Positions 1 through 18,166 of a stretch of 64,000 nt of DNA are shown in pieces. Origin of the DNA: Escherichia coli (GTDB lineage Bacteria > Pseudomonadota > Gammaproteobacteria > Enterobacterales > Enterobacteriaceae). The stretch's first letter is position 1. Each line of letters starts with the position of its first letter. The translations under genes and the position numbers were made by a program. Under the pieces are notes generated by a model. That model made no database searches and was not told the origin of the DNA. It saw nothing but the letters and a program-made list of their open reading frames with translations. The stretch is taken from the NCBI RefSeq assembly GCF_050920415.1, contig NZ_CP169309.1. One strand, written 5' to 3'.

Positions 1-1253
1 GCCAGCTTTATCTGTGGCTGTGCCGCCATCGGATCGGAGCCGAACTTATCGCAGCCGGGCAACATTACCCACAGCCGGATCTGGCGTTGTCTCCCGCCGG
101 TTTCAGCGCCAGGGAATCCCTGTTGCCATCTCCCGCCGGAATGCGGGATGGCTACCGGATCTTACAGGACTGGCTCTGTTTCCCTGATGTGCTGTACTTT
201 TTTAATCTCCGCGACGTAGTGGTGCCGGATGGCGTGCTGACCGGCAGTTTTACTCTGCGACTGAATTTTAACCGCCCGTTGCCGGAGGAACTGCACATCA
301 GCCGCGACTCCCTGCGCCTGTACTGCGCCCCGGCGGTGAATCTGTTTGTCCATGACGCCATTCCCTTCGTACCTGACAGCACCCGTCGCGAATATCCGTT
401 GCAGGTCAGCGAAGACTACCCGGATCATTATGATATTTTCAGCGTCAGGGGTATCCGCAACCGGGACAATGGTCCTGAACGCACCGATGGTCTGCGCAAT
501 ATGATGTTATCCCGTGAGCAGAATGTACTCTCCCTGGATAACGATCAGCCGCGCCCGGAATATCATCGCGAGAAGAAAACCATTTACTGGCGGCACCGGA
601 CAAAAACCGCACTGTTACGTGAAACACCGGATCATTTCATTTCGCTGGTTCATTTTGATGGCAGCACGCCAGATGCCTCCCTGATGAGCAGTGAGCCTGT
701 TCTGGTTTCGCTGGTCTGCACCAGTGGTGACAGGCCCTGTTCGCTGGCACCCGGTGATATCTGTGAGGCAGCGGGGCAAAATACCTCCGTGGCGTCATTT
801 TGTAACGTCACCACACCAACAAGACCTGTGCCGCCCGTACCGGATGGCTCCCTGCACTGGTCGCTGCTCAATATTATGACGCTGAACTGGCTGACCATGA
901 ATGACGTGGAAGCCCTGAGGGATATTCTGCGTACGCTGGATCGGCATGGCATTCACAGGCCGCTGACGGCGCGCCTGTCGCCGGAAAAGCTGAACGGACT
1001 GGAGAAACTGGAAACCCTGCCCACCGATCGCCTTTTACGGGGTGTCGTGATACGCGGCCTGTCGTCCACACTGTACGTCAATCCGCAGCCGTTTTCCTGC
1101 GAAGGTGAAATGCACCTGCTGGGAACGGTGCTGTCGCACTTTTTTGCCCTGTACGCCAGCACAAACTCCTGGCATATGCTGACCATGATTAACACAGAAA
1201 CAAAGGAAGCCTGGCGATGGAAGGAAAGAACCGGTCAGTTCCCCCTGATGTAG
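1..1253 (+). CDS. tssF: Type VI secretion baseplate subunit TssF-like, C-terminal part (5' end outside window)
   Basis: Frame-3 ORF open from the window edge to the stop at 1253; overlaps the start of the downstream TssG-like ORF as is typical for tssF-tssG; family assignment from recall, not searched. Confidence 0.5.
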   Translation, partial: QLYLWLCRHRIGAELIAAGQHYPQPDLALSPAGFSARESLLPSPAGMRDGYRILQDWLCFPDVLYFFNLRDVVVPDGVLTGSFTLRLNFNRPLPEELHISRDSLRLYCAPAVNLFVHDAIPFVPDSTRREYPLQVSEDYPDHYDIFSVRGIRNRDNGPERTDGLRNMMLSREQNVLSLDNDQPRPEYHREKKTIYWRHRTKTALLRETPDHFISLVHFDGSTPDASLMSSEPVLVSLVCTSGDRPCSLAPGDICEAAGQNTSVASFCNVTTPTRPVPPVPDGSLHWSLLNIMTLNWLTMNDVEALRDILRTLDRHGIHRPLTARLSPEKLNGLEKLETLPTDRLLRGVVIRGLSSTLYVNPQPFSCEGEMHLLGTVLSHFFALYASTNSWHMLTMINTETKEAWRWKERTGQFPLM

Positions 1254-2281
1254 AAAACGACACGCCCGATAGCGGAAAACGGAATGAGACACAGGCTCTG
1301 CGTGATGCCTGCTACGGCAATTTTTTTGCTGTCACCGATCTGCTGTACCGCAGTCGTGGCGATGCCATTTCACTGAGAACGGAACCGGAGCAGGAAACGG
1401 TTCATTTTCGTGCCAGTCCTGACATCGCGTTTCCCCTGCGGGATATTGAATCGCTGGAAAAAAATACCGCCGATCAGTACGTAATGACCACCCGATTTAT
1501 GGGGTTATCCGGCAGTTCATCACCATTGCCGGGTTACTATCTGGATGAGATGGCCTGGGTGCAGGCACAGGAAGGCGGCAGCACAACGGCGGATTTCCTG
1601 AACCTCTTCACCCACAGGTATACGCAATTTTTGTACCACATCTGGCGAAAATACCGCTGGTATATCAGTTTTCGTAATGGTGGAACGGATAAGATCTCAC
1701 AGCGGATCTATGCGCTTATCGGGCTGGGCAACCCGCGTGTACGGGAACGGCTGGATATCTGCCACAGCAGGCTGCTGGCTTACGCCGGAATATTATCCGG
1801 CCCCGGACGTTCACCGGCAATGATCTGCGATCTGATCGCACACTGTTTTGATCTGCATGATGTCAGACTGGAAAACTGGCAGTTTCGTCGGGTGGCTATT
1901 CCACCTGATCAGCAAACCCGGCTGGGAAGGTGTGAGCCGGATGCCGAAGGGAAGATGCAGGGTAAATCGGTGCTGGGCGTTAATTTTGTTCTCGGCTCGC
2001 GCGTACCGGATTACAGTGGGAAATTTATGTTGTGTATCAGTAACCTGTCACTGCCGCGATATATGGCCTTTTTGCCCGACGGTGAGGAATACCTGGCGCT
2101 GACCACCTTCGTGGCTTTCCTGTTGCGCGATCAGTTTGCCTGGGAGCTGCGGTTAAGTCTTGTGCCAGAGCAAATTGGTGGAATGCGGCTGGGGGATAAG
2201 AGAAGCTCTCAACTGGGGAGAACCAGTTTTATTGGTAAGCCGCCACGCGAACCCTTTGTGACCATACGGGTCAGGGGATAA
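1217..2281 (+). CDS. tssG: Type VI secretion baseplate subunit TssG-like
   Basis: 354-aa ORF overlapping the upstream ORF by 37 nt; contains an FMGLSGSSSPLPGYY motif resembling the conserved TssG FxGLxGxxGPLP signature. Confidence 0.55.
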   Translation: MEGKNRSVPPDVENDTPDSGKRNETQALRDACYGNFFAVTDLLYRSRGDAISLRTEPEQETVHFRASPDIAFPLRDIESLEKNTADQYVMTTRFMGLSGSSSPLPGYYLDEMAWVQAQEGGSTTADFLNLFTHRYTQFLYHIWRKYRWYISFRNGGTDKISQRIYALIGLGNPRVRERLDICHSRLLAYAGILSGPGRSPAMICDLIAHCFDLHDVRLENWQFRRVAIPPDQQTRLGRCEPDAEGKMQGKSVLGVNFVLGSRVPDYSGKFMLCISNLSLPRYMAFLPDGEEYLALTTFVAFLLRDQFAWELRLSLVPEQIGGMRLGDKRSSQLGRTSFIGKPPREPFVTIRVRG

Positions 2282-2616
2282 AGCCTGTACTGGCAATTGT
2301 TCCGGCCTGCGCTTTGCGATCCGTCCTTCCAGAAAATCACTTGCCACCTTTTATGGGTCATTGTATCGTTGCGCCGCGTCTGCAAAATCAGGCGTCGGGA
2401 TTGGTCTCCCGGTTATAACTCGTTGACGGCATATGACATTTCTGTGTCATTTCTGTGCCGTGCGTTCGGCTGCACTTCTATGGTGGGGCCGGGTGGGGGC
2501 GTTGAAAGACGCGCCGGTTCCCAACGAGACCGGTAAGACCAACTCCGTCCGGTTCCACCACCCGTAAGATTGGTCTCTTCAGTGGTGGAAAATATATTCT
2601 CGTTGGAGGCCACATT

Positions 2617-3078
2617 ATGGCTGTTATTTCTGTTCATAAAGACGATTTACTTACCATCCCCTTCAGTGCCGCTACTGATTTCACCGATCTGGCTGCTCAC
2701 TGCGATCGCTTCGCCCAGACCCTGATCGAATGCCACAATCCTGCGCTAAAAATGGCGCTCTGTGGCAGGCTTAATACCTGCCTTGCACTGTTGCGGCCCA
2801 CGCTGAACGAGCCGATCCCGCCGCATCTGATTGACGGTTTTATTACGAATGATTTTCCCGATGTTTCACCCGGTTTTGAACCTGATGCAGAATCACTCTG
2901 CGATTACTGCCTGGCGCTGACACAGATACTGAATGGTCACTCACTGTTACCTGAAACCGAAACCACGCTGACCGGGCTGCTGTGCGAGCTGGTCTGGTAT
3001 TTTGCTGACAGTCTGAAAGCCCCGCACTGGATACGTACCGCTGACGGCGTACAGGTTATCGACGGGAGGCCAGCATGA
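2617..3078 (+). CDS. Hypothetical protein (153 aa), first gene of a two-gene operon with the Ner-like gene
   Basis: ORF with plausible RBS (GGAGG upstream of ATG); stop overlaps start of next ORF (ATGA); no recognisable motif. Confidence 0.5.
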   Translation: MAVISVHKDDLLTIPFSAATDFTDLAAHCDRFAQTLIECHNPALKMALCGRLNTCLALLRPTLNEPIPPHLIDGFITNDFPDVSPGFEPDAESLCDYCLALTQILNGHSLLPETETTLTGLLCELVWYFADSLKAPHWIRTADGVQVIDGRPA

Positions 3079-3329
3079 TGCAGCCGGACTGGCATCCCGC
3101 TGATATTATCGCGGGACTGAGAAAACGGGGGACATCGCTGGCTAAGGTGTCCCGCAGCGCGGGACTGGCGTCCGCCACGCTGGCAAACGCGTTGACCCGT
3201 TCGTGGCCGCGCGGCGAAAAACTCATTGCGGATGCGCTGGAAACATCACCGGAAATTATCTGGCCCTCCAGATATTTCGATAATCAGGGCAACCGCATTG
3301 TAAGACTTATGCGAGAGCGGCGCTCCTGA
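3075..3329 (+). CDS. Ner/Nlp (SfsB)-family HTH DNA-binding protein
   Basis: 84-aa product with DWHPADIIAGLRKRGTSLA...WPSRY, closely resembling recalled Mu Ner / E. coli Nlp(SfsB) proteins. Confidence 0.8.
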   Translation: MMQPDWHPADIIAGLRKRGTSLAKVSRSAGLASATLANALTRSWPRGEKLIADALETSPEIIWPSRYFDNQGNRIVRLMRERRS

Positions 3330-3366
3330 TGGCAGAAGCGTCAGATACAAGGTTACGGTAAAATAT

Positions 3367-3408
3367 CTCCCGGCTCTCTGCCTGCTTCTGCTGGCAGAGA
3401 GCCGGGAG
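3367..3408. terminator. Perfect 16-bp inverted repeat (ctcccggctctctgcc / ggcagagagccgggag) just after the Ner-like gene; terminator-like hairpin without a clear T-run
   Basis: Read directly from sequence. Confidence 0.5.
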
Positions 3409-4219
3409 AAGACAAGCGAAGCGCGGCAGTTTTTCAGTCACGAAGTAAGCAAACAATCTTTTAAACGCAAAAAACGTTTTTTCTTTCTGCGCCAGAAATA
3501 ACGGTGTAATCTCCCTCCTGCACTATGCCTTCGGGCACCCTTTGGCTTCATGGTCTGCAAGAAGCCCCTGATTTATCAGGACGACCAGCCCTTGCTACCG
3601 GTACGACCTCCGCAATACCGGAACGCGAAAGCGTTTGAGGCGAAGTAATTACACACCGGACAGCCCCATCGTCATCGTTTTACCGCAACGGCCTTCACTG
3701 GCTGCAAGGTTTCTCTTTGCCGGAATTTCTCCGGCCTGCTTATCCCCTGCTGATGACCAGCGCCTTTTACATGACGGGCTGCGGCCTGCATTGCCGTCAG
3801 GCTTTGCTGCCGCGTGACCGTTAATCTACCAGACTGTTAATTTTCGAATACTGCACCAGAAACGCAATGTTTACCCCTTGCACCAGACGAGGCGTCACTT
3901 TGATCGCGTCAGCGAAAAAGCAAAGTGACGCCGCACAACTCACCGCCGCAAGCCGCGCCAGTTCTGGCCTGCGCCCTGTTTCCGCCGTCTGACATGCCCT
4001 TTGGGGCCGTTGTCAGCTCAGAGTAAAGGAGAAAAAGATCGATACCGAGGGGGGCACGACGCCCCGGAGACACCCCTGCTTCGTCAGGCAGTCTGTACTG
4101 CGTACAGCCTGAAACTCCCTAAACCTCAACAAACTGCCACTCCGGCGTGAAGGTATCGTTCTGGCGCAGCCAAAAAGCACACGCCGGAGACTGTTTGTTT
4201 TTGTTGTCAGGGGAGAGTC

Positions 4220-5104
4220 ATGAGCAAATTAAGCAGTGAAATGAAGGCGCTGGCGAAGAAAGCGGGCGGCAGCTTCAAAACGGTGAATGATCGTATTCAT
4301 GCCACGAAGCGGTTCAGCCAGCATTTACGCGAACTGAATATCCAGATCCAGCGGGTGGAGCAGATCAAAGTTCGCCATATCGAATGCTACATTCAGGAGC
4401 GGCTGGAGCAGGATATTGGTTTACGCACGCTGCAAAACGAAATGGCGGCGCTGCGCTCCGTACTGAGACTGGCGGGACGCCGACAGGTGGTGGAGCATCC
4501 GCGCCTGACCAATAAGGCGCTGGGGCTGTCAGGCGCTTCGCGCAACGGCACGCGCCGCGCCATTACGCCGGAACATTATGAAAAAGTGATGGAGAGCGCC
4601 CGTGCACAGGATGCGGGGCTGGCGGCAGCGGTGGAGATTGCGCGGCTGATGGGATTACGCTCGCAGGAGGCGGTACAGAGTTCACAGTCGCTGAAAACGT
4701 GGCTGAAAGCCATTTCCCGCGGCGAAACCCGGCTGAAAGTGGTGTTTGGCACCAAAGGCGGGCGTCCACGTTACACAACGATCCTGGACGCTGGTGCAGT
4801 CAGAAAGGCGGTGGAAAACGCGTTACCGATCGCCAGACAGCGCAATGGCAGGCTGATCGACAGGCCTGACCTCAAAACAGCGCTGGAGAGCTGGCACAAA
4901 CAGGCCATTAAGGCGGGACTGAAGGGGGAATTTTCCCCGCACTCACTGCGTTATGCATGGGCACAGGACGCGATCCGTTATTATCTGGCGCAGGGATTCA
5001 GCGAAAAAGAATCCCTGGCGCTGACGGCAACGGATCTGGGCCACGGCGACGGTCGCGGCCGCTGGGTGAAACAGGTGTACGGCTACCGCTGGAAGGAGGA
5101 ATAA
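4220..5104 (+). CDS. Tyrosine-recombinase-like (phage integrase family) protein, atypical, 294 aa
   Basis: HSLRYAWAQD (HxxR-like box), GLRSQE motif and C-terminal Tyr-containing region; strong RBS (GGGGAGAG) before ATG. Confidence 0.55.
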   Translation: MSKLSSEMKALAKKAGGSFKTVNDRIHATKRFSQHLRELNIQIQRVEQIKVRHIECYIQERLEQDIGLRTLQNEMAALRSVLRLAGRRQVVEHPRLTNKALGLSGASRNGTRRAITPEHYEKVMESARAQDAGLAAAVEIARLMGLRSQEAVQSSQSLKTWLKAISRGETRLKVVFGTKGGRPRYTTILDAGAVRKAVENALPIARQRNGRLIDRPDLKTALESWHKQAIKAGLKGEFSPHSLRYAWAQDAIRYYLAQGFSEKESLALTATDLGHGDGRGRWVKQVYGYRWKEE

Positions 5105-6127
5105 CTGAATTCATGAATGGCGCAAAATAGTACGTTATTGTGTAATGACAGCAATCAGTCTGGCGCAGGGACCGGATGAAATAAAACAACCGGATACCTG
5201 CCGTTATCACTTAACAATATAGTGATAATATTGTTACTGTATGGCGAGTAAATATCAATAACCCAGACCTTCCTGCTTCATCAGTGTGTTTTTCTGGAAT
5301 ATTATAGTGATTACCCCTGTAATCACTCGAAACGTTCCCTATTGATAACAGGTGTTTTAATCGTTTTTACCGATACCACAGGACTGGGAAAATGTTAAAA
5401 TGCCAATTCACCAGAATTTCACATTAATTCTGGCGCAGGATTATATCTGAATAATTCTCTCCATGTTTTCCTGCATCCTGTGACATATATTGTATGCTCA
5501 CAGAATGTCTCATGATTTTATAAAAAATGCTGCGACAGTTTTTGACATCATTACCTGCTACATATAGATTAACAATCTTCGGTGCTTCATGTTGTTTTTT
5601 GCACTTTGTGATCATTATCAGGTGGTTAAAATACAATCTGGTGCAGACTGTCATGGCGCATTTCCAAATAAACTGGTTGCGCCAGAAAGGGAAAGGGTCA
5701 TAAAGGTTAAGGGGCAATAAGGGTAACAGCGCCTGACCGGAAAGGGCGGAAAACTAAAGGGCCAGAAACTGGCGCAGTCCTGAGTATTTTAAATCGCAGG
5801 ATGCTGGTGTAGATATCGGCTAATCCGAAATGGTGCAGGATTTTATCTCTGCGTATCTGGTGCGGTTCTTAAAGGTTGCAGGATATATTTTCATGATCAG
5901 GTTGTGGTGCAGATATTTTTGCGTATTAATTGTTTTTTCCGTGAAATTATCGCTTATTGATAGATTTCCACCTGTTTTGATTTGCATGCAAATCAAAACG
6001 GTCAGTTTCCTATTAATAAGGCGTTAATTAATAGGTTTTTACCCAAAATTATTCACTGGTGAATAATTTCGTACTATTTCCAATTAATAATAACAAACAC
6101 AATGGCAATACCTCTCAATACAAAAAA

Positions 6128-6160
6128 GCAGATCCCCGTCAATCAGGATCTGCTTTTCCA
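6128..6160. terminator. Bidirectional rho-independent terminator (gcagatcc...ggatctgc stem flanked by A-run and T-run)
   Basis: Hairpin with flanking A6 and T4; lies about 90 nt downstream of the integrase stop on the minus strand. Confidence 0.6.
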
Positions 6161-6249
6161 TTTTTACAGAATTACATTATTTCTGACTCAGGCAGGCCTG
6201 TGTCACCAGGTATGGCTGATAACGGCTATTTCTGTTGCCATATGGAGCA

Positions 6250-7461
6250 CTATATTGCCCTTACAGTCACAGATGCCTCACTGATCTTCTGCCCCCACCA
6301 ATTCATCAGTTCCACACGCTGAACCAGGTAAACTGCGCGGTTGTAGGCAACACGTGTTGGATTTTCATCAATATGTGACAAAACTGCTTCCACCGCATCC
6401 GGCATAAATCCGGCTTCATGCAGCGCCGTACTGCCCAGCGCGCGGAAACCATGTGAAACCAACTCGCCGCCGTAACCCATCCGCCATAATGCCTTGTTGA
6501 CCGTCTCACTGTGCATTGGCTGGCTGCGTTTAACCCTGCCGGGAAAGACATACAGCGAATGCTCACTTAATGGCTTAAGCTGCGCCAATACCGACATTGC
6601 CTGTGGTGACAGTGGCACCTGGTGCTCACGCTTCATCTTCATGCGTTCAGCCGGGATAGTCCAGAGCCGTTTATCCATATCAATCTCACACCACATCGTT
6701 CCTGCGGCCTCAGCAGGGCGTACCAGGGTCAGGAGTTGCCATTGCAGCAATAACCGCGTCATGGGGCTTAAACAGGTTGTGTGGACCCGCTGCATGAGTT
6801 CCGGCAGACGCTCCGGGCGAATGGTCGGCATATGCTGCTTTTTCGGCTTCACGAATGCTTCATCAATGGTTGACGCCGGGTTTGCATCCAGCAGGCCTGT
6901 ATTAATGGCGAATTTCATGACCTCATTAATTCGCTGCGTCAGCCGGTGCAACGTCTCCAGCGTGCCACGCGCCCGTACAGGCTCCAGGGCGGAAATAAGC
7001 GTGTGCGCTTTCAGTTCTGTCACTGGCATCTGCCCAATGGCCGGGAACACATCGCGCTCCAGCGATCTCCAGATATCGTCTGCATAATCTTCGGAGATTC
7101 TGGTTTTCTTCACCGCGAACCATCTCGTCGCCACATTAATAAACAGGCTCTCCACCGCCAGCCGCTCCCGTTCGGCTTCCTCCTGCTCCAGTTTCTTTGG
7201 GTCAATACCTTTCACAAGCAGGGAAAGCTGTTCGGCGTGTAATGCGCGTGCGCTGGCAAGCGACATGGCAGGATAATGCCCGAGAGTGATGGTGGTTCGC
7301 GCAGTCGAATTTGGCCGTTTGTAACGAAAACGCCAGATCTTTTTACCGCTGGTTCTGACAAACAGGGTCAGCCCCTGCCCGTCAAACAGTTCGTAATCTT
7401 TATCAGAGGGTTTTGCTTTCTGGACTTCGCAAGCTGATAACGGACGGGTAAGAACAGCCAT
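6250..7461 (-). CDS. P4-family site-specific tyrosine integrase
   Basis: 403-aa product with N-terminal DKDYELFDGQGLTLFVRTSGKKIWRFRYK (P4-int signature) and C-terminal catalytic region (HGFRALGST...AYNRA.Y); located immediately downstream of a tRNA operon. Confidence 0.85.
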   Translation of the reverse strand: MAVLTRPLSACEVQKAKPSDKDYELFDGQGLTLFVRTSGKKIWRFRYKRPNSTARTTITLGHYPAMSLASARALHAEQLSLLVKGIDPKKLEQEEAERERLAVESLFINVATRWFAVKKTRISEDYADDIWRSLERDVFPAIGQMPVTELKAHTLISALEPVRARGTLETLHRLTQRINEVMKFAINTGLLDANPASTIDEAFVKPKKQHMPTIRPERLPELMQRVHTTCLSPMTRLLLQWQLLTLVRPAEAAGTMWCEIDMDKRLWTIPAERMKMKREHQVPLSPQAMSVLAQLKPLSEHSLYVFPGRVKRSQPMHSETVNKALWRMGYGGELVSHGFRALGSTALHEAGFMPDAVEAVLSHIDENPTRVAYNRAVYLVQRVELMNWWGQKISEASVTVRAI

Positions 7462-7646
7462 ACAATCACTCCTTAAATGTCAGTTGAAAATGACAGTGAT
7501 TGAGTGGTGCAATATTTTGTTTTCTTGAAGTTTTTTCAGCAGGAAACTGAATATGGGCCTACAAGATTTCCACCGCCAGAAGCATAGGCCCATTCGTAGG
7601 CCCATTTGCTCTGGATTCCCCGAACCCCGGAGAGAAGCATACAGAC

Positions 7647-10897: not shown

Positions 10898-10936
10898 AAT
10901 TTTGCACCCAGCAAATTTGGTACGTAAACGACTCGT

Positions 10937-13419: not shown

Positions 13420-13535
13420 AAAGCAGGGAATTATCCCCGGCTTTTGTGGCTGATGACAAACAGAAAAATGCCTGATGCGCTACGCTTATCAGGCCTACAT
13501 GGAATTGAAGCCGGGGAATTATCCCCGGCTTTTTA
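13420..13535. repeat. REP-type extragenic palindrome (gcctgatgcgctacgcttatcaggcctac) flanked by two copies of a terminator hairpin (ccggggaattatccccgg)
   Basis: Read from sequence; convergent pdeA/nupC intergenic region. Confidence 0.7.
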
Positions 13536-14753: not shown

Positions 14754-15079
14754 ATTTGCTCCAAATATGAGGCAGGTTAAATTTCCGTGCACATTCTATG
14801 TAACATGGTTAAGGAAAACGAGATCTGACACACACTATAATGACGTCCTGTGACAAGCTTCAAAAATAGTGAGCTGTCATACATTTCTGCTATGTTGTGT
14901 ATGGAAGCTGAAAGTTATGTAAATGTGCTAACATTAAACATAATCACAACATTCAAGTCATCAATCTTTTCGTCGTCATAATTCTGGTCTATCAAAGAAA
15001 TCATCACAATCCACTTAAATGAATTTGATAATCATTCTCGTTTGACATAGCATGAAACATAGCAAAGGCTATGTTTTAG

Positions 15080-16327
<1,248 letters not shown>

Positions 16328-16355
16328 TTCAACTGGCGTCGTACCAGGCATCACT

Positions 16356-16445
16356 GGCGGATGCGGCGTAAAACGCCTTATCCGCCCTACACATTAAAGA
16401 GCCGGTTTGTAGGCCTGATAAGACGCGCTAGCGTCGCATCAGGCA
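16356..16445. repeat. BIME: two inverted REP elements
   Basis: ggcggatgcggcgtaaaacgccttatccgccctaca and tgtaggcctgataagacgcgctagcgtcgcatcaggc match the REP consensus. Confidence 0.8.
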
Positions 16446-16468
16446 TTGTGCTCCAGTGGCGAATGTGT

Positions 16469-16795
16469 TTAATGGCGATGCCCATGTCCGCGGCCCTTTC
16501 CGCGATGATCATCACGATCGCGCCAGCCTTCACGATAGCCACGCTCATAGGCTTTACGCTTATCCCAGCCACGGTGGTAGCCATTATCATGACGCCACCA
16601 GCGGTTTTTACGCCATTCATAATTGCGATGCCAGTAGTCACGGTCGCGCCAGTGACCACCGTCCCAGTAATTACCGTAATGATCGCGATCGCCAATTTGT
16701 AATTTGATTGATGGCAGTAGGGTGATTTCACCTGCGTTTGCCACAAGCGGGGTAAATGCCATCAGGGCGGCCGCCAGAAACAGTGACCTGAACAT
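16469..16795 (-). CDS. ypeC: Secreted low-complexity protein YpeC (DUF2502-type), His/Arg/Trp/Asp-rich
   Basis: 108 aa with N-terminal signal peptide ([21 protein letters not shown]) and repetitive W/R/D/H-rich tail. Confidence 0.85.
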
Positions 16796-16909
16796 TGTTA
16801 TTCTCCTTCACGATCGAAGCCGTCAGCGGCCTGTTAACGCAATATTACGGGGAGGTAAAGCCCCGTATCATCGCCATAACTCTTAAATCATAAAGGAGAG
16901 CATTTTTTG

Positions 16910-18166
16910 CTAAATGTTATCGTGGGGTGGCTGTTGCTTCGGACGATTGACTATCATCATCGGCTTACCTGCTAATAACAGCCATGCCGGAAGCATGACG
17001 ATACAGAGCAGCGGTAGCAATGTGGTATTGGGTACAACGACTGCCGCCATAAAAAGACTTAACCAGCCATCGCGTGTTACCACCAGCACGATGCCGAGAA
17101 TAGCGCAGGAAACGGTTATTGCCGCTGGAACGGCGGGAACGTGCTCATGCAGCATCAATCCTAATGCCACGCCGACAAACACTGCCGGGAAGATTCGCCC
17201 ACCGCGAAAGCCGCTGGCGGCAGCAACCACGAGAGCGGCAAGTTTAATCACTGCCAGCAAAAAGTAATCGCTGGTGCTGAAAGCCTGATTTGCCACCATC
17301 TGCTGCATCTCATCCAGCCCTTTAAATAGCGAAACCGGTCCAGCAATAACCCCCAGAATACCGAGAATAAATCCGCCAACTCCTAGCATTAGCACCGGAT
17401 TTTTAATCTGATGCATCATCGCGTGCAACCGTGGCAGACACCATACGGCAACCATCCCTGCTGCGATGGCAATAGCCGCCACAATTGCACCGCTGAGAAT
17501 ATCGGTCATCTCCATCTGCCCATAATGCGCAATGGGCAGTGAAAAATGAGGATGGAAAAATAATCCGGTAGTAAGTGCACCAGCTGCTGCGGCCATTAAC
17601 GGCGCAAAGAGACGGTCCCATAGCGGAACCTCATTACTGCCATTTAAGGTTTGCGAAAATATCAACGCCGCTGCAACAGGTGTGCCAAACAGCGCGCCGA
17701 TGGTTCCGGCAGAGGCTAAAATAGTCCACTCCATTCGGTTGACGCGCGGTAACAGACGAGCGCCAATGGCGACGGCAAGGGCGATATTGACGGTCATGAT
17801 CGGATGTTCCGGCCCGAGACTGACGCCGCCAGCAAGACCGAGAATTAATGCTACGATAAGTCCTGGTAGCGCAGAGGGCGGAACCGGTGCGCCGATCAGC
17901 GGTTCACAGGCGGGGTCTGGCCCGGCATGCCCCTGGCTGAAACGGATAACCAACCCCACCGCAATACCTGTTAGCGTTAATATGGCGATGATCCAGAAAG
18001 GTGAATCCTGGGCTATCCCCAGAGTTCCCGGCAGTCGTTGCCAGAGCAAATTCTGTAATACCGAGGCGATTTTCATCACCACAATCAGAATAAGACTGGA
18101 CGCAATCCCAATTGCCACGGCGGGGAGCGATAATAACAACATGGTTCTGGCTCGCGGATGGAGCAT
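16910..18166 (-). CDS. yfeO: Putative ion-transport membrane protein YfeO (ClC-like)
   Basis: 418-aa polytopic membrane protein; position between ypeC and glk as in K-12. Confidence 0.85.

Follow-up and report, generated by a model that had tools for sequence, protein, structure and literature searches.

REP elements and BIMEs have been defined in earlier work (PMC3333891, after Bachellier et al.). A GTAG or CTAC tetranucleotide at the foot of the palindrome is part of the REP definition, and in a BIME-2 a short linker joins a y REP to a z2 REP. The linkers of BIME-2 and of atypical BIMEs are variable in both length and sequence (PMC3333891). Also relevant to what follows are shadow ORFs, a general annotation artefact in which the codon composition of a true gene leaves long non-coding frames free of stops. 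The true gene in the present case is ypeC. Expression of this gene is induced 42-60-fold, along with that of Rcs-regulon genes, when LolCDE is inhibited (PMC5105897), and it is 24-fold lower in an O157 isolate whose rcsB is disrupted (PMC5343319). Moreover, ypeC is a target of MarA and SoxS, and the sequence of the MarA-binding site has been published (Table 1 of PMC5684230).

We analyzed the interval 16356-16795 of a stretch of 64,000 nucleotides of Escherichia coli DNA, which we call the window. The gene order in this part of the window is nupC, mntH, ypeC, yfeO, glk. In a near-identical E. coli record, RefSeq places nupC on the minus strand, mntH at 15089-16327 on the plus strand, yfeO at 16910-18166 on the minus strand, and glk on the plus strand. 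Positions 16250-16950 match the chromosome of E. coli strain MFDS1022581 with 100% identity, and are annotated there as mntH, ypeC and yfeO; when the whole window was compared with that chromosome base by base, the earliest mismatch was at window position 10908. The region is present in approximately 5,300 of 5,426 complete E. coli genomes, and K-12 MG1655 has the identical gene order; its ypeC is b2390 and its mntH is b2392.

An earlier note on this DNA, made from its letters alone, had named the two genes mntH and ypeC, and these names agree with the RefSeq annotation of the near-identical record and with K-12 MG1655. The note had also proposed a comparison with the K-12 annotation. In both K-12 MG1655 and the near-identical RefSeq record, mntH and ypeC are the only features annotated here, and the alternative reading frames are empty. 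The number b2391 is absent between b2390 and b2392, but a literature search for “b2391”, as a phantom ORF that might once have been annotated, returned nothing relevant. We are highly confident that the interval consists of one real gene, ypeC, and one known kind of repeat, a REP pair, and that the three additional ORFs in it are non-genes. The gene is annotated, the repeat family is known and the additional ORFs are shadow ORFs; all of this is either already known or ordinary, and the interval holds no novelty.

Two other parts of the window deserve mention. Positions 1-7500 contain tssF and tssG (Type VI secretion baseplate), two integrase-domain genes and a helix-turn-helix gene, beside a tRNA-Lys / tRNA-Val cluster; genomic islands at tRNA sites are arranged in this way. 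At 15019-15108, upstream of mntH and overlapping its start, the K-12 small protein YpeD (b4819, 29 aa) is disrupted in the strain of the window, both by a change of TGG to TGA at codon 9 (around 15045) and by a change of GAA to TAA at 15094-15096. The 14-codon “hypothetical protein” at 15052-15096 in the RefSeq annotation of the near-identical record is the remnant of YpeD. The ypeD ORF sits on a perfect palindrome, AAACATAGC-AAAG-GCTATGTTT (15055-15076), in the mntH promoter region, and this palindrome looks like a putative operator for a regulator.

The REP pair between mntH and ypeC

The genes mntH and ypeC are convergent, and a 141-nt spacer separates the mntH stop (16327) from the ypeC stop (16469). 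The earlier note had placed two inverted REP elements in this spacer, and its claim is borne out by an inverted-repeat search, by matches to the REP foot and head motifs and by folding. The inverted-repeat search, which covered 16300-16500, found two hairpins, at 16356-16386 and 16413-16444, with 14-nt arms that are 86% complementary. The two hairpins are inverted copies of each other, as the arms 16374-16391 and 16408-16425 pair with each other, and likewise the arms 16352-16368 and 16432-16448. They fold on both strands (z = -3.0 and -4.9), with an internal mismatch in each stem.

The first element is a Y-type REP at 16352-16391 on the plus strand (CACTGGCGGATGCGGCGTAAAACGCCTTATCCGCCCTACA), with its hairpin core at 16356-16386 and a CTAC foot at 16387-16390. 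The second, a Z2-type REP at 16408-16448, is inverted relative to the first; it reads CAATGCCTGATGCGACGCTAGCGCGTCTTATCAGGCCTACA on the minus strand, and has its hairpin core at 16413-16444 and a GTAG foot at 16409-16412 in plus-strand terms. The CTAC of the first REP faces this GTAG, which is CTAC on the minus strand, across the 16-nt linker CATTAAAGAGCCGGTT (16392-16407). The foot motif CTTATCMGGCCTAC matches at 16377-16390 (plus strand, one mismatch) and at 16409-16422 (minus strand, no mismatches), and has 3 matches in the 64-kb window, as compared with 0.46 expected by chance. The head motif GCCKGATGCGRCG matches at 16356-16368 (plus strand) and 16432-16444 (minus strand). The head of the first REP is GGCGGATG, with a y-like G, and that of the second is GCCTGATG, with a z-like T and a longer loop region, GACGCTAGCGCGTC. 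The same REP pair is present in K-12.

It is important to note that we assigned the REP types from a few reference copies and from a y/z2 consensus of the literature, cross-checked only against the REP pair downstream of yaaX, and not from a genome-wide census. Weak evidence points to a probable third element, the decayed half of a Z-like REP, at 16333-16351 on the minus strand, 6 nt past the mntH stop. This stretch is a direct repeat of 16428-16446 with 84% identity and matches the head motif at 16337-16349 with two mismatches; its K-12 counterpart, GCGTCGCATCTGGCA, is closer in form.

Elsewhere in the window, a further perfect REP foot motif, CTTATCAGGCCTAC, occurs at 13485-13498, between pdeA and nupC. 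In K-12, a copy of IS186 is annotated from 29 nt past the nupC stop.

Both elements in the mntH-ypeC spacer have three of the properties that characterize REPs. Each is an imperfect palindrome of 30-40 nt that forms a hairpin with a stem mismatch, each has GTAG or CTAC at its foot, and each is extragenic, since both lie entirely inside the spacer. Near-identical REP copies are found at unrelated loci, namely at window position 13485 and downstream of K-12 yaaX, although these are two sites and not a genome-wide count.

We consider it very improbable that the two hairpins are instead terminator-like palindromes that are specific to this locus and unrelated to the REP family. Such an explanation would account for the locus-specific linker. 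Indeed, the linker is not borne out as a recurrent BIME motif: together with the REP feet, it occurs once in an E. coli genome (a median of 1 place and at most 2). [quoted passage not shown] The REP-derived Rfam family naRNA4 might also seem to favor this explanation, as it matches both REPs below its gathering score of 59.5, with 47.1 bits for the Z2 copy and 36.6 bits for the Y copy. Finally, the RefSeq copies of the locus carry no REP features. Yet the K-12 RefSeq record has none around the clearly readable REP pair downstream of yaaX either, so the missing annotation is uninformative. What speaks against locus-specific palindromes is that both hairpins have the head and foot motifs with 0-1 mismatch, including the CTAC/GTAG and the stem mismatch, that near-identical REPs exist at the two other sites given above, and that the hairpins have no T-tract. 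We therefore treat the two hairpins as REPs below.

The ypeC gene and the composition of its product

The ypeC gene (16469-16795, minus strand) is the sole real gene of the interval. Annotated in RefSeq and matched by Pfam family PF10697, it encodes a secreted DUF2502 protein of 108 aa. A signal peptide covers approximately residues 1-22, and residues 23-106 match positions 1-90 of the 90 in the DUF2502 model with 85.4 bits (cut-off 27, E = 3e-24). The Shine-Dalgarno sequence GAAGGAG lies 7 nt before the ATG. YpeC occurs on at least 1000 contigs in a collection of approximately 15 billion proteins. A sequence search against solved structures gave no match at E <= 1. The published marbox assigned to ypeC, GCATTTTTTGCTAAA, has a single exact match in the window, where 0.03 are expected. 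This match is at 16900-16914 (plus strand), 105 nt upstream of the ypeC ATG, and overlaps the 3' end of yfeO.

In a scan for orthologues that used one genome per species, we collected 80 ypeC loci from Enterobacteriaceae. The ORF is intact in 79 of these, running from MFRSL... to a Gly/His-rich end, and its length changes in whole codons. The 80th locus (L019) has no stop within the sequence read, and we excluded it from the alignments. Over the whole gene, nucleotide diversity among the Enterobacteriaceae orthologues is 0.12, 0.10 and 0.40 at the first, second and third codon positions, respectively; in codons 36-108, the corresponding values are 0.117, 0.111 and 0.422. The K-12 gene (b2390) has the same location, with yfeO and mntH as its neighbors, and also encodes a DUF2502 protein of 108 aa. 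It differs from the window at 11 of 327 nt, of which 10 are third codon positions, and the proteins differ by one residue, V18 here being A in K-12, and otherwise in nothing of substance.

Two further observations concern ypeC in other sequences. The gene contains a pair of 15-nt direct repeats, at 16512-16526 and 16638-16652, which are 93% identical, are spaced exactly 126 nt apart and both encode WRDRD. On 51 contigs (e.g., in E. coli O22:H8 strain 154), ypeC occurs as a natural allele of 66 aa, from which exactly these 42 codons are missing; it looks like the product of an in-frame deletion between the 15-nt repeats. Separately, an assembly with the label Rhizobium wenxiniae has a 398-nt contig, NZ_JAEUAN010000098.1, whose YpeC is 99% identical to the E. 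coli protein. This contig is almost certainly Escherichia DNA that contaminates the Rhizobium wenxiniae assembly.

The earlier note had described the ypeC region as one of low complexity. This description is correct for the protein and for the codon positions, but not for the bulk composition of the DNA. Residues 36-108 of YpeC use 10 residue types, i.e., R, G, D, H, W, Y, K, E, N and one A, and have an entropy of 3.06 bits, as compared with a minimum of 3.48 bits in 11,677 windows of equal length from the other proteins of the window. At the DNA level, the 4-mer richness is 0.50, and the minimum elsewhere is 0.53. The bias is also seen at the second codon position, where codons 36-108 have A at a frequency of 0.51, G at 0.48, C at 0.01 and T at 0.00. 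The corresponding frequencies in the other genes of the window are 0.28, 0.18, 0.23 and 0.31. In contrast to these values, the overall G+C content is normal (0.54-0.57), and the profile of G+C and skew is unremarkable. We found no tandem DNA repeat in ypeC, which rules out microsatellite DNA as the source of its bias. Given a normal G+C content and no tandem repeat, the bias lies at the level of amino acids and codon positions, and not in simple-sequence DNA.

Open reading frames that overlap ypeC

Three long ORFs overlap ypeC. The first (16361-16702, plus strand, 113 aa) is antisense to ypeC in the same codon register; its predicted product is rich in I, V, M, A, T and P, and its start codon is inside the Y-type REP. 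The second (16387-16746, 119 aa) is in the +1 frame of the ypeC strand, i.e., the minus strand; it has a TTG start and extends across the Z2 REP as far as the linker. The third (16456-16707, plus strand, 83 aa) is in the second antisense frame and has a GTG start.

The earlier note attributed such ORFs, in other frames and on the opposite strand, to the compositional bias of the ypeC coding region. The entropy given above, counts of stop codons and re-coding experiments in silico all support this attribution. In the last 76 codons of ypeC, three of the five alternative frames are free of stops: the five frames have 0, 12, 0, 11 and 0 stops, as compared with approximately 3.8, 4.7, 2.7, 2.7 and 4.2 for other genes. 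Three open alternative frames are rare in general, as they occur in 45 of 11,560 sliding windows of the window's other 39 genes and in 1 of 5,000 simulated proteins of average composition (0.02%). However, when YpeC itself was re-coded with synonymous codons in 5,000 trials, the three frames were open in 92%, 100% and 100% of cases, and all three together in 92%. In nature, 90%, 99% and 100% of the 80 species have these frames open, which does not exceed the forced rate.

The cause is as follows. Beyond the signal peptide and a short conserved N-terminal stretch, YpeC consists almost wholly of R, G, D, H, W, Y, K, E and N, whose codons all carry A or G in their second position, and this clears stops from three frames. 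A stop in the +1 frame requires an NTA or NTG codon, with T at position 2; the ypeC tail has none, so the +1 frame is open. For the codon-aligned antisense frame, a stop requires TTA, CTA or TCA, which encode Leu or Ser; these are also absent from the tail, so this frame is open as well. The second antisense frame is open for a similar reason, and the other two frames are unusually rich in stops. Because the composition of YpeC clears stops in this way, ORFs of 83-119 codons are a forced by-product of its sequence.

As judged from comparisons between sequences, the ORFs at 16361-16702 (plus strand), 16387-16746 (minus strand) and 16456-16707 (plus strand) are not genes. The earlier note had called these ORFs almost certainly not genes, and annotation, Pfam, diversity by codon position and the substitutions relative to K-12 all agree with it. 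None of the three has a translation signal or a detected product. A Pfam search of the three alternative products gave no match, there is no Shine-Dalgarno sequence before any of the three starts, and the ORFs have no annotation. The six alternative products, in their window and K-12 versions, are absent from the collection of approximately 15 billion proteins, in an exact-sequence look-up that misses products with other starts.

Nor does any of the three ORFs exhibit purifying selection in its own frame. It follows from the coordinates that the position that is variable in ypeC corresponds to position 2 in the first alternative frame, 1 in the second and 2 in the third, and never to the third codon position of any of them. 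In codons 33-108, the window and K-12 differ by 9 substitutions, which cause no change in YpeC and 9 residue changes in each open alternative frame. When all 11 differences are counted, 1 YpeC residue is changed, versus 9-10 residues in each open alternative frame. In addition, the K-12 counterpart of the 113-aa ORF has only 84 aa, because its start sits in the variable REP region.

Scoring of codon usage in each frame, a check that the earlier note had put forward, was less decisive. We scored each frame by the log-odds of codon frequencies in frame as opposed to off frame, with 39 genes of the window (44 kb) as the training set. In the shared part, the log-odds per codon are 0.16 for ypeC, 0.31 for the +1 frame, and 0.17 (codon-aligned) and 0.01 for the antisense frames. 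Plain log-odds thus fail to separate the frames. A score restricted to the choice among synonymous codons does favor ypeC, with 0.30 versus at most 0.13 for the other frames. The failure of plain codon-usage scoring on these frames means that the annotation hazard is real in principle. The comparative data settle the question of frame where plain codon scoring cannot.

The possibility should nonetheless be weighed that one of these ORFs is a genuine overlapping gene, whose product (the hydrophobic 113-aa antisense product or the 119-aa +1 product, either of which looks membrane-like) is translated alongside YpeC. All three ORFs are long, 90-100% of the 80 species keep them open, their codon log-odds are inside or close to the span seen in real genes, and synonymous diversity is slightly reduced at a handful of Gly and Arg codons. 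Specifically, at Gly and Arg codons that are invariant, ypeC has third-position diversities of 0.36 and 0.42 (n=5 and 4, respectively), versus 0.58 and 0.59 in mntH; at two-fold codons there is no difference, with 0.34 in ypeC versus 0.38 in mntH. The lower diversity at these nine codons, a very small sample, could reflect an overlapping constraint, but a codon preference of ypeC, as seen in its synonymous-codon score of 0.30, is the simpler reading. The openness of the frames is what YpeC forces, given the 92-100% found on synonymous re-coding. Moreover, in every alternative frame the most variable nucleotide falls at position 1 or 2, all 9 of the 9 substitutions in codons 33-108 alter the alternative products and none alters YpeC, and the 113-aa ORF, which is shortened in K-12, starts in a REP that is found only in Escherichia. 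With no Pfam match, Shine-Dalgarno sequence, K-12 annotation or exact product in the protein collection, we regard an overlapping gene as highly unlikely.

The converse idea, that ypeC is the artefact and that the true gene is in another frame, can point to the odd composition of YpeC and to the better codon log-odds of the +1 frame in the shared part, but there is next to no chance that it is right: only the ypeC frame has a signal peptide and a DUF2502 match (85 bits), its ORF is intact in the 79 fully readable orthologues with length changes in multiples of three, third-position variation tracks this frame, as do the substitutions relative to K-12, the Shine-Dalgarno sequence is strong, and a regulated transcript exists on the ypeC strand with a mapped MarA site upstream. 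The preferred reading remains that ypeC is the gene and that the three overlapping ORFs are its by-products.

The mntH-ypeC spacer in relatives and comparison with known systems

We found no intrinsic terminator in the mntH-ypeC spacer of E. coli. The convergent arrangement of the two genes is kept in most of the 80 loci. Outside Escherichia, the spacers are 29-91 nt long, and at least 27 of 45 (among loci L011-L083) consist of an A-tract, a GC hairpin and a T-tract; the Citrobacter spacer, AAACAAAAGAGCCCGTAGGCTCTTTTGTT, is an example. Such spacers have the shape of bidirectional intrinsic terminators. The Escherichia spacers are 80-143 nt long and have REPs in 5 of 5 cases, and the terminator shape and T-tract in 0 of 5. 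Escherichia lineages range from one REP to a pair, as the E. albertii spacer has the Y copy only. The Salmonella spacer has a GC hairpin without a T-tract.

Since they can fold on both strands, the REP hairpins most likely form the 3'-end structure of both the mntH and the ypeC transcripts. In this position, they would block 3' exonucleases, and they may attenuate read-through. Position and folding suggest that the REPs most likely mark or protect both 3' ends. It is also conceivable, although we would not call it probable, that the Escherichia REP pair replaced an ancestral bidirectional intrinsic terminator and is now a 3'-end element shared by the mntH and ypeC transcripts. A portion of the linker, AAAGAGCC, resembles the left arm of the Citrobacter terminator at the same position, and this portion of the linker may be what is left of the old terminator arm. 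If the replacement did occur, the locus would be a clean natural case of REPs doing the job of a terminator. The difference between the REPs of Escherichia and the bidirectional terminator of its relatives offers a small, testable point on the role of REPs at the ends of convergent genes.

The ypeC locus is also a compact worked example of how protein composition, here the purine-only second codon positions, can force several long phantom ORFs. Simple codon-usage scoring can let such ORFs pass as genes, whereas variation by codon position across relatives rejects them at once. Beyond annotation hygiene, the importance of the case is small.

In comparison with known repeats, the two REPs are in inverse orientation with 16 nt between their feet, as expected of a BIME. 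They resemble a BIME-2 in combining a Y and a Z2 copy, with feet that face each other across a short linker, and in their extragenic position between convergent genes. In this they are unlike BIME-1, which has a z1 REP and a long linker with an IHF site. However, BIME-2 elements occur in multiple tandem copies, and the mntH-ypeC locus has one pair with, at most, the possible decayed half-REP at 16333-16351. From these features, the REPs appear to be a single BIME-2-like (or atypical) pair. The individual copies can be compared with those downstream of K-12 yaaX. The Y copy has a compensated change in its stem, with GGCGGAT...ATCCGCC here versus GCCGGAT...ATCCTGC there, while the Z2 copy is one loop mismatch from the Z-type REP.

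The yaaX locus (b0005) is comparable in a second respect, because yaaX is a DUF2502 paralogue of ypeC. The two genes share a conserved N-terminal segment (...YWDGGHWRD), and each is followed by a REP pair. The YaaX tail is different in being rich in Pro and His, with C and T at second codon positions, and the alternative frames of yaaX have 1, 5, 1, 9 and 0 stops from codon 36. The REP pair downstream of yaaX (532-683 of the K-12 segment 5000-6600) has a long AT-rich linker, as opposed to the 16 nt at ypeC.

Compared with shadow ORFs in general, the case of ypeC is unusually strong, as three frames are open at once over approximately 76 codons. It differs also in what drives it, which is the lack of T and near lack of C at the second codon position, and not a high G+C content.
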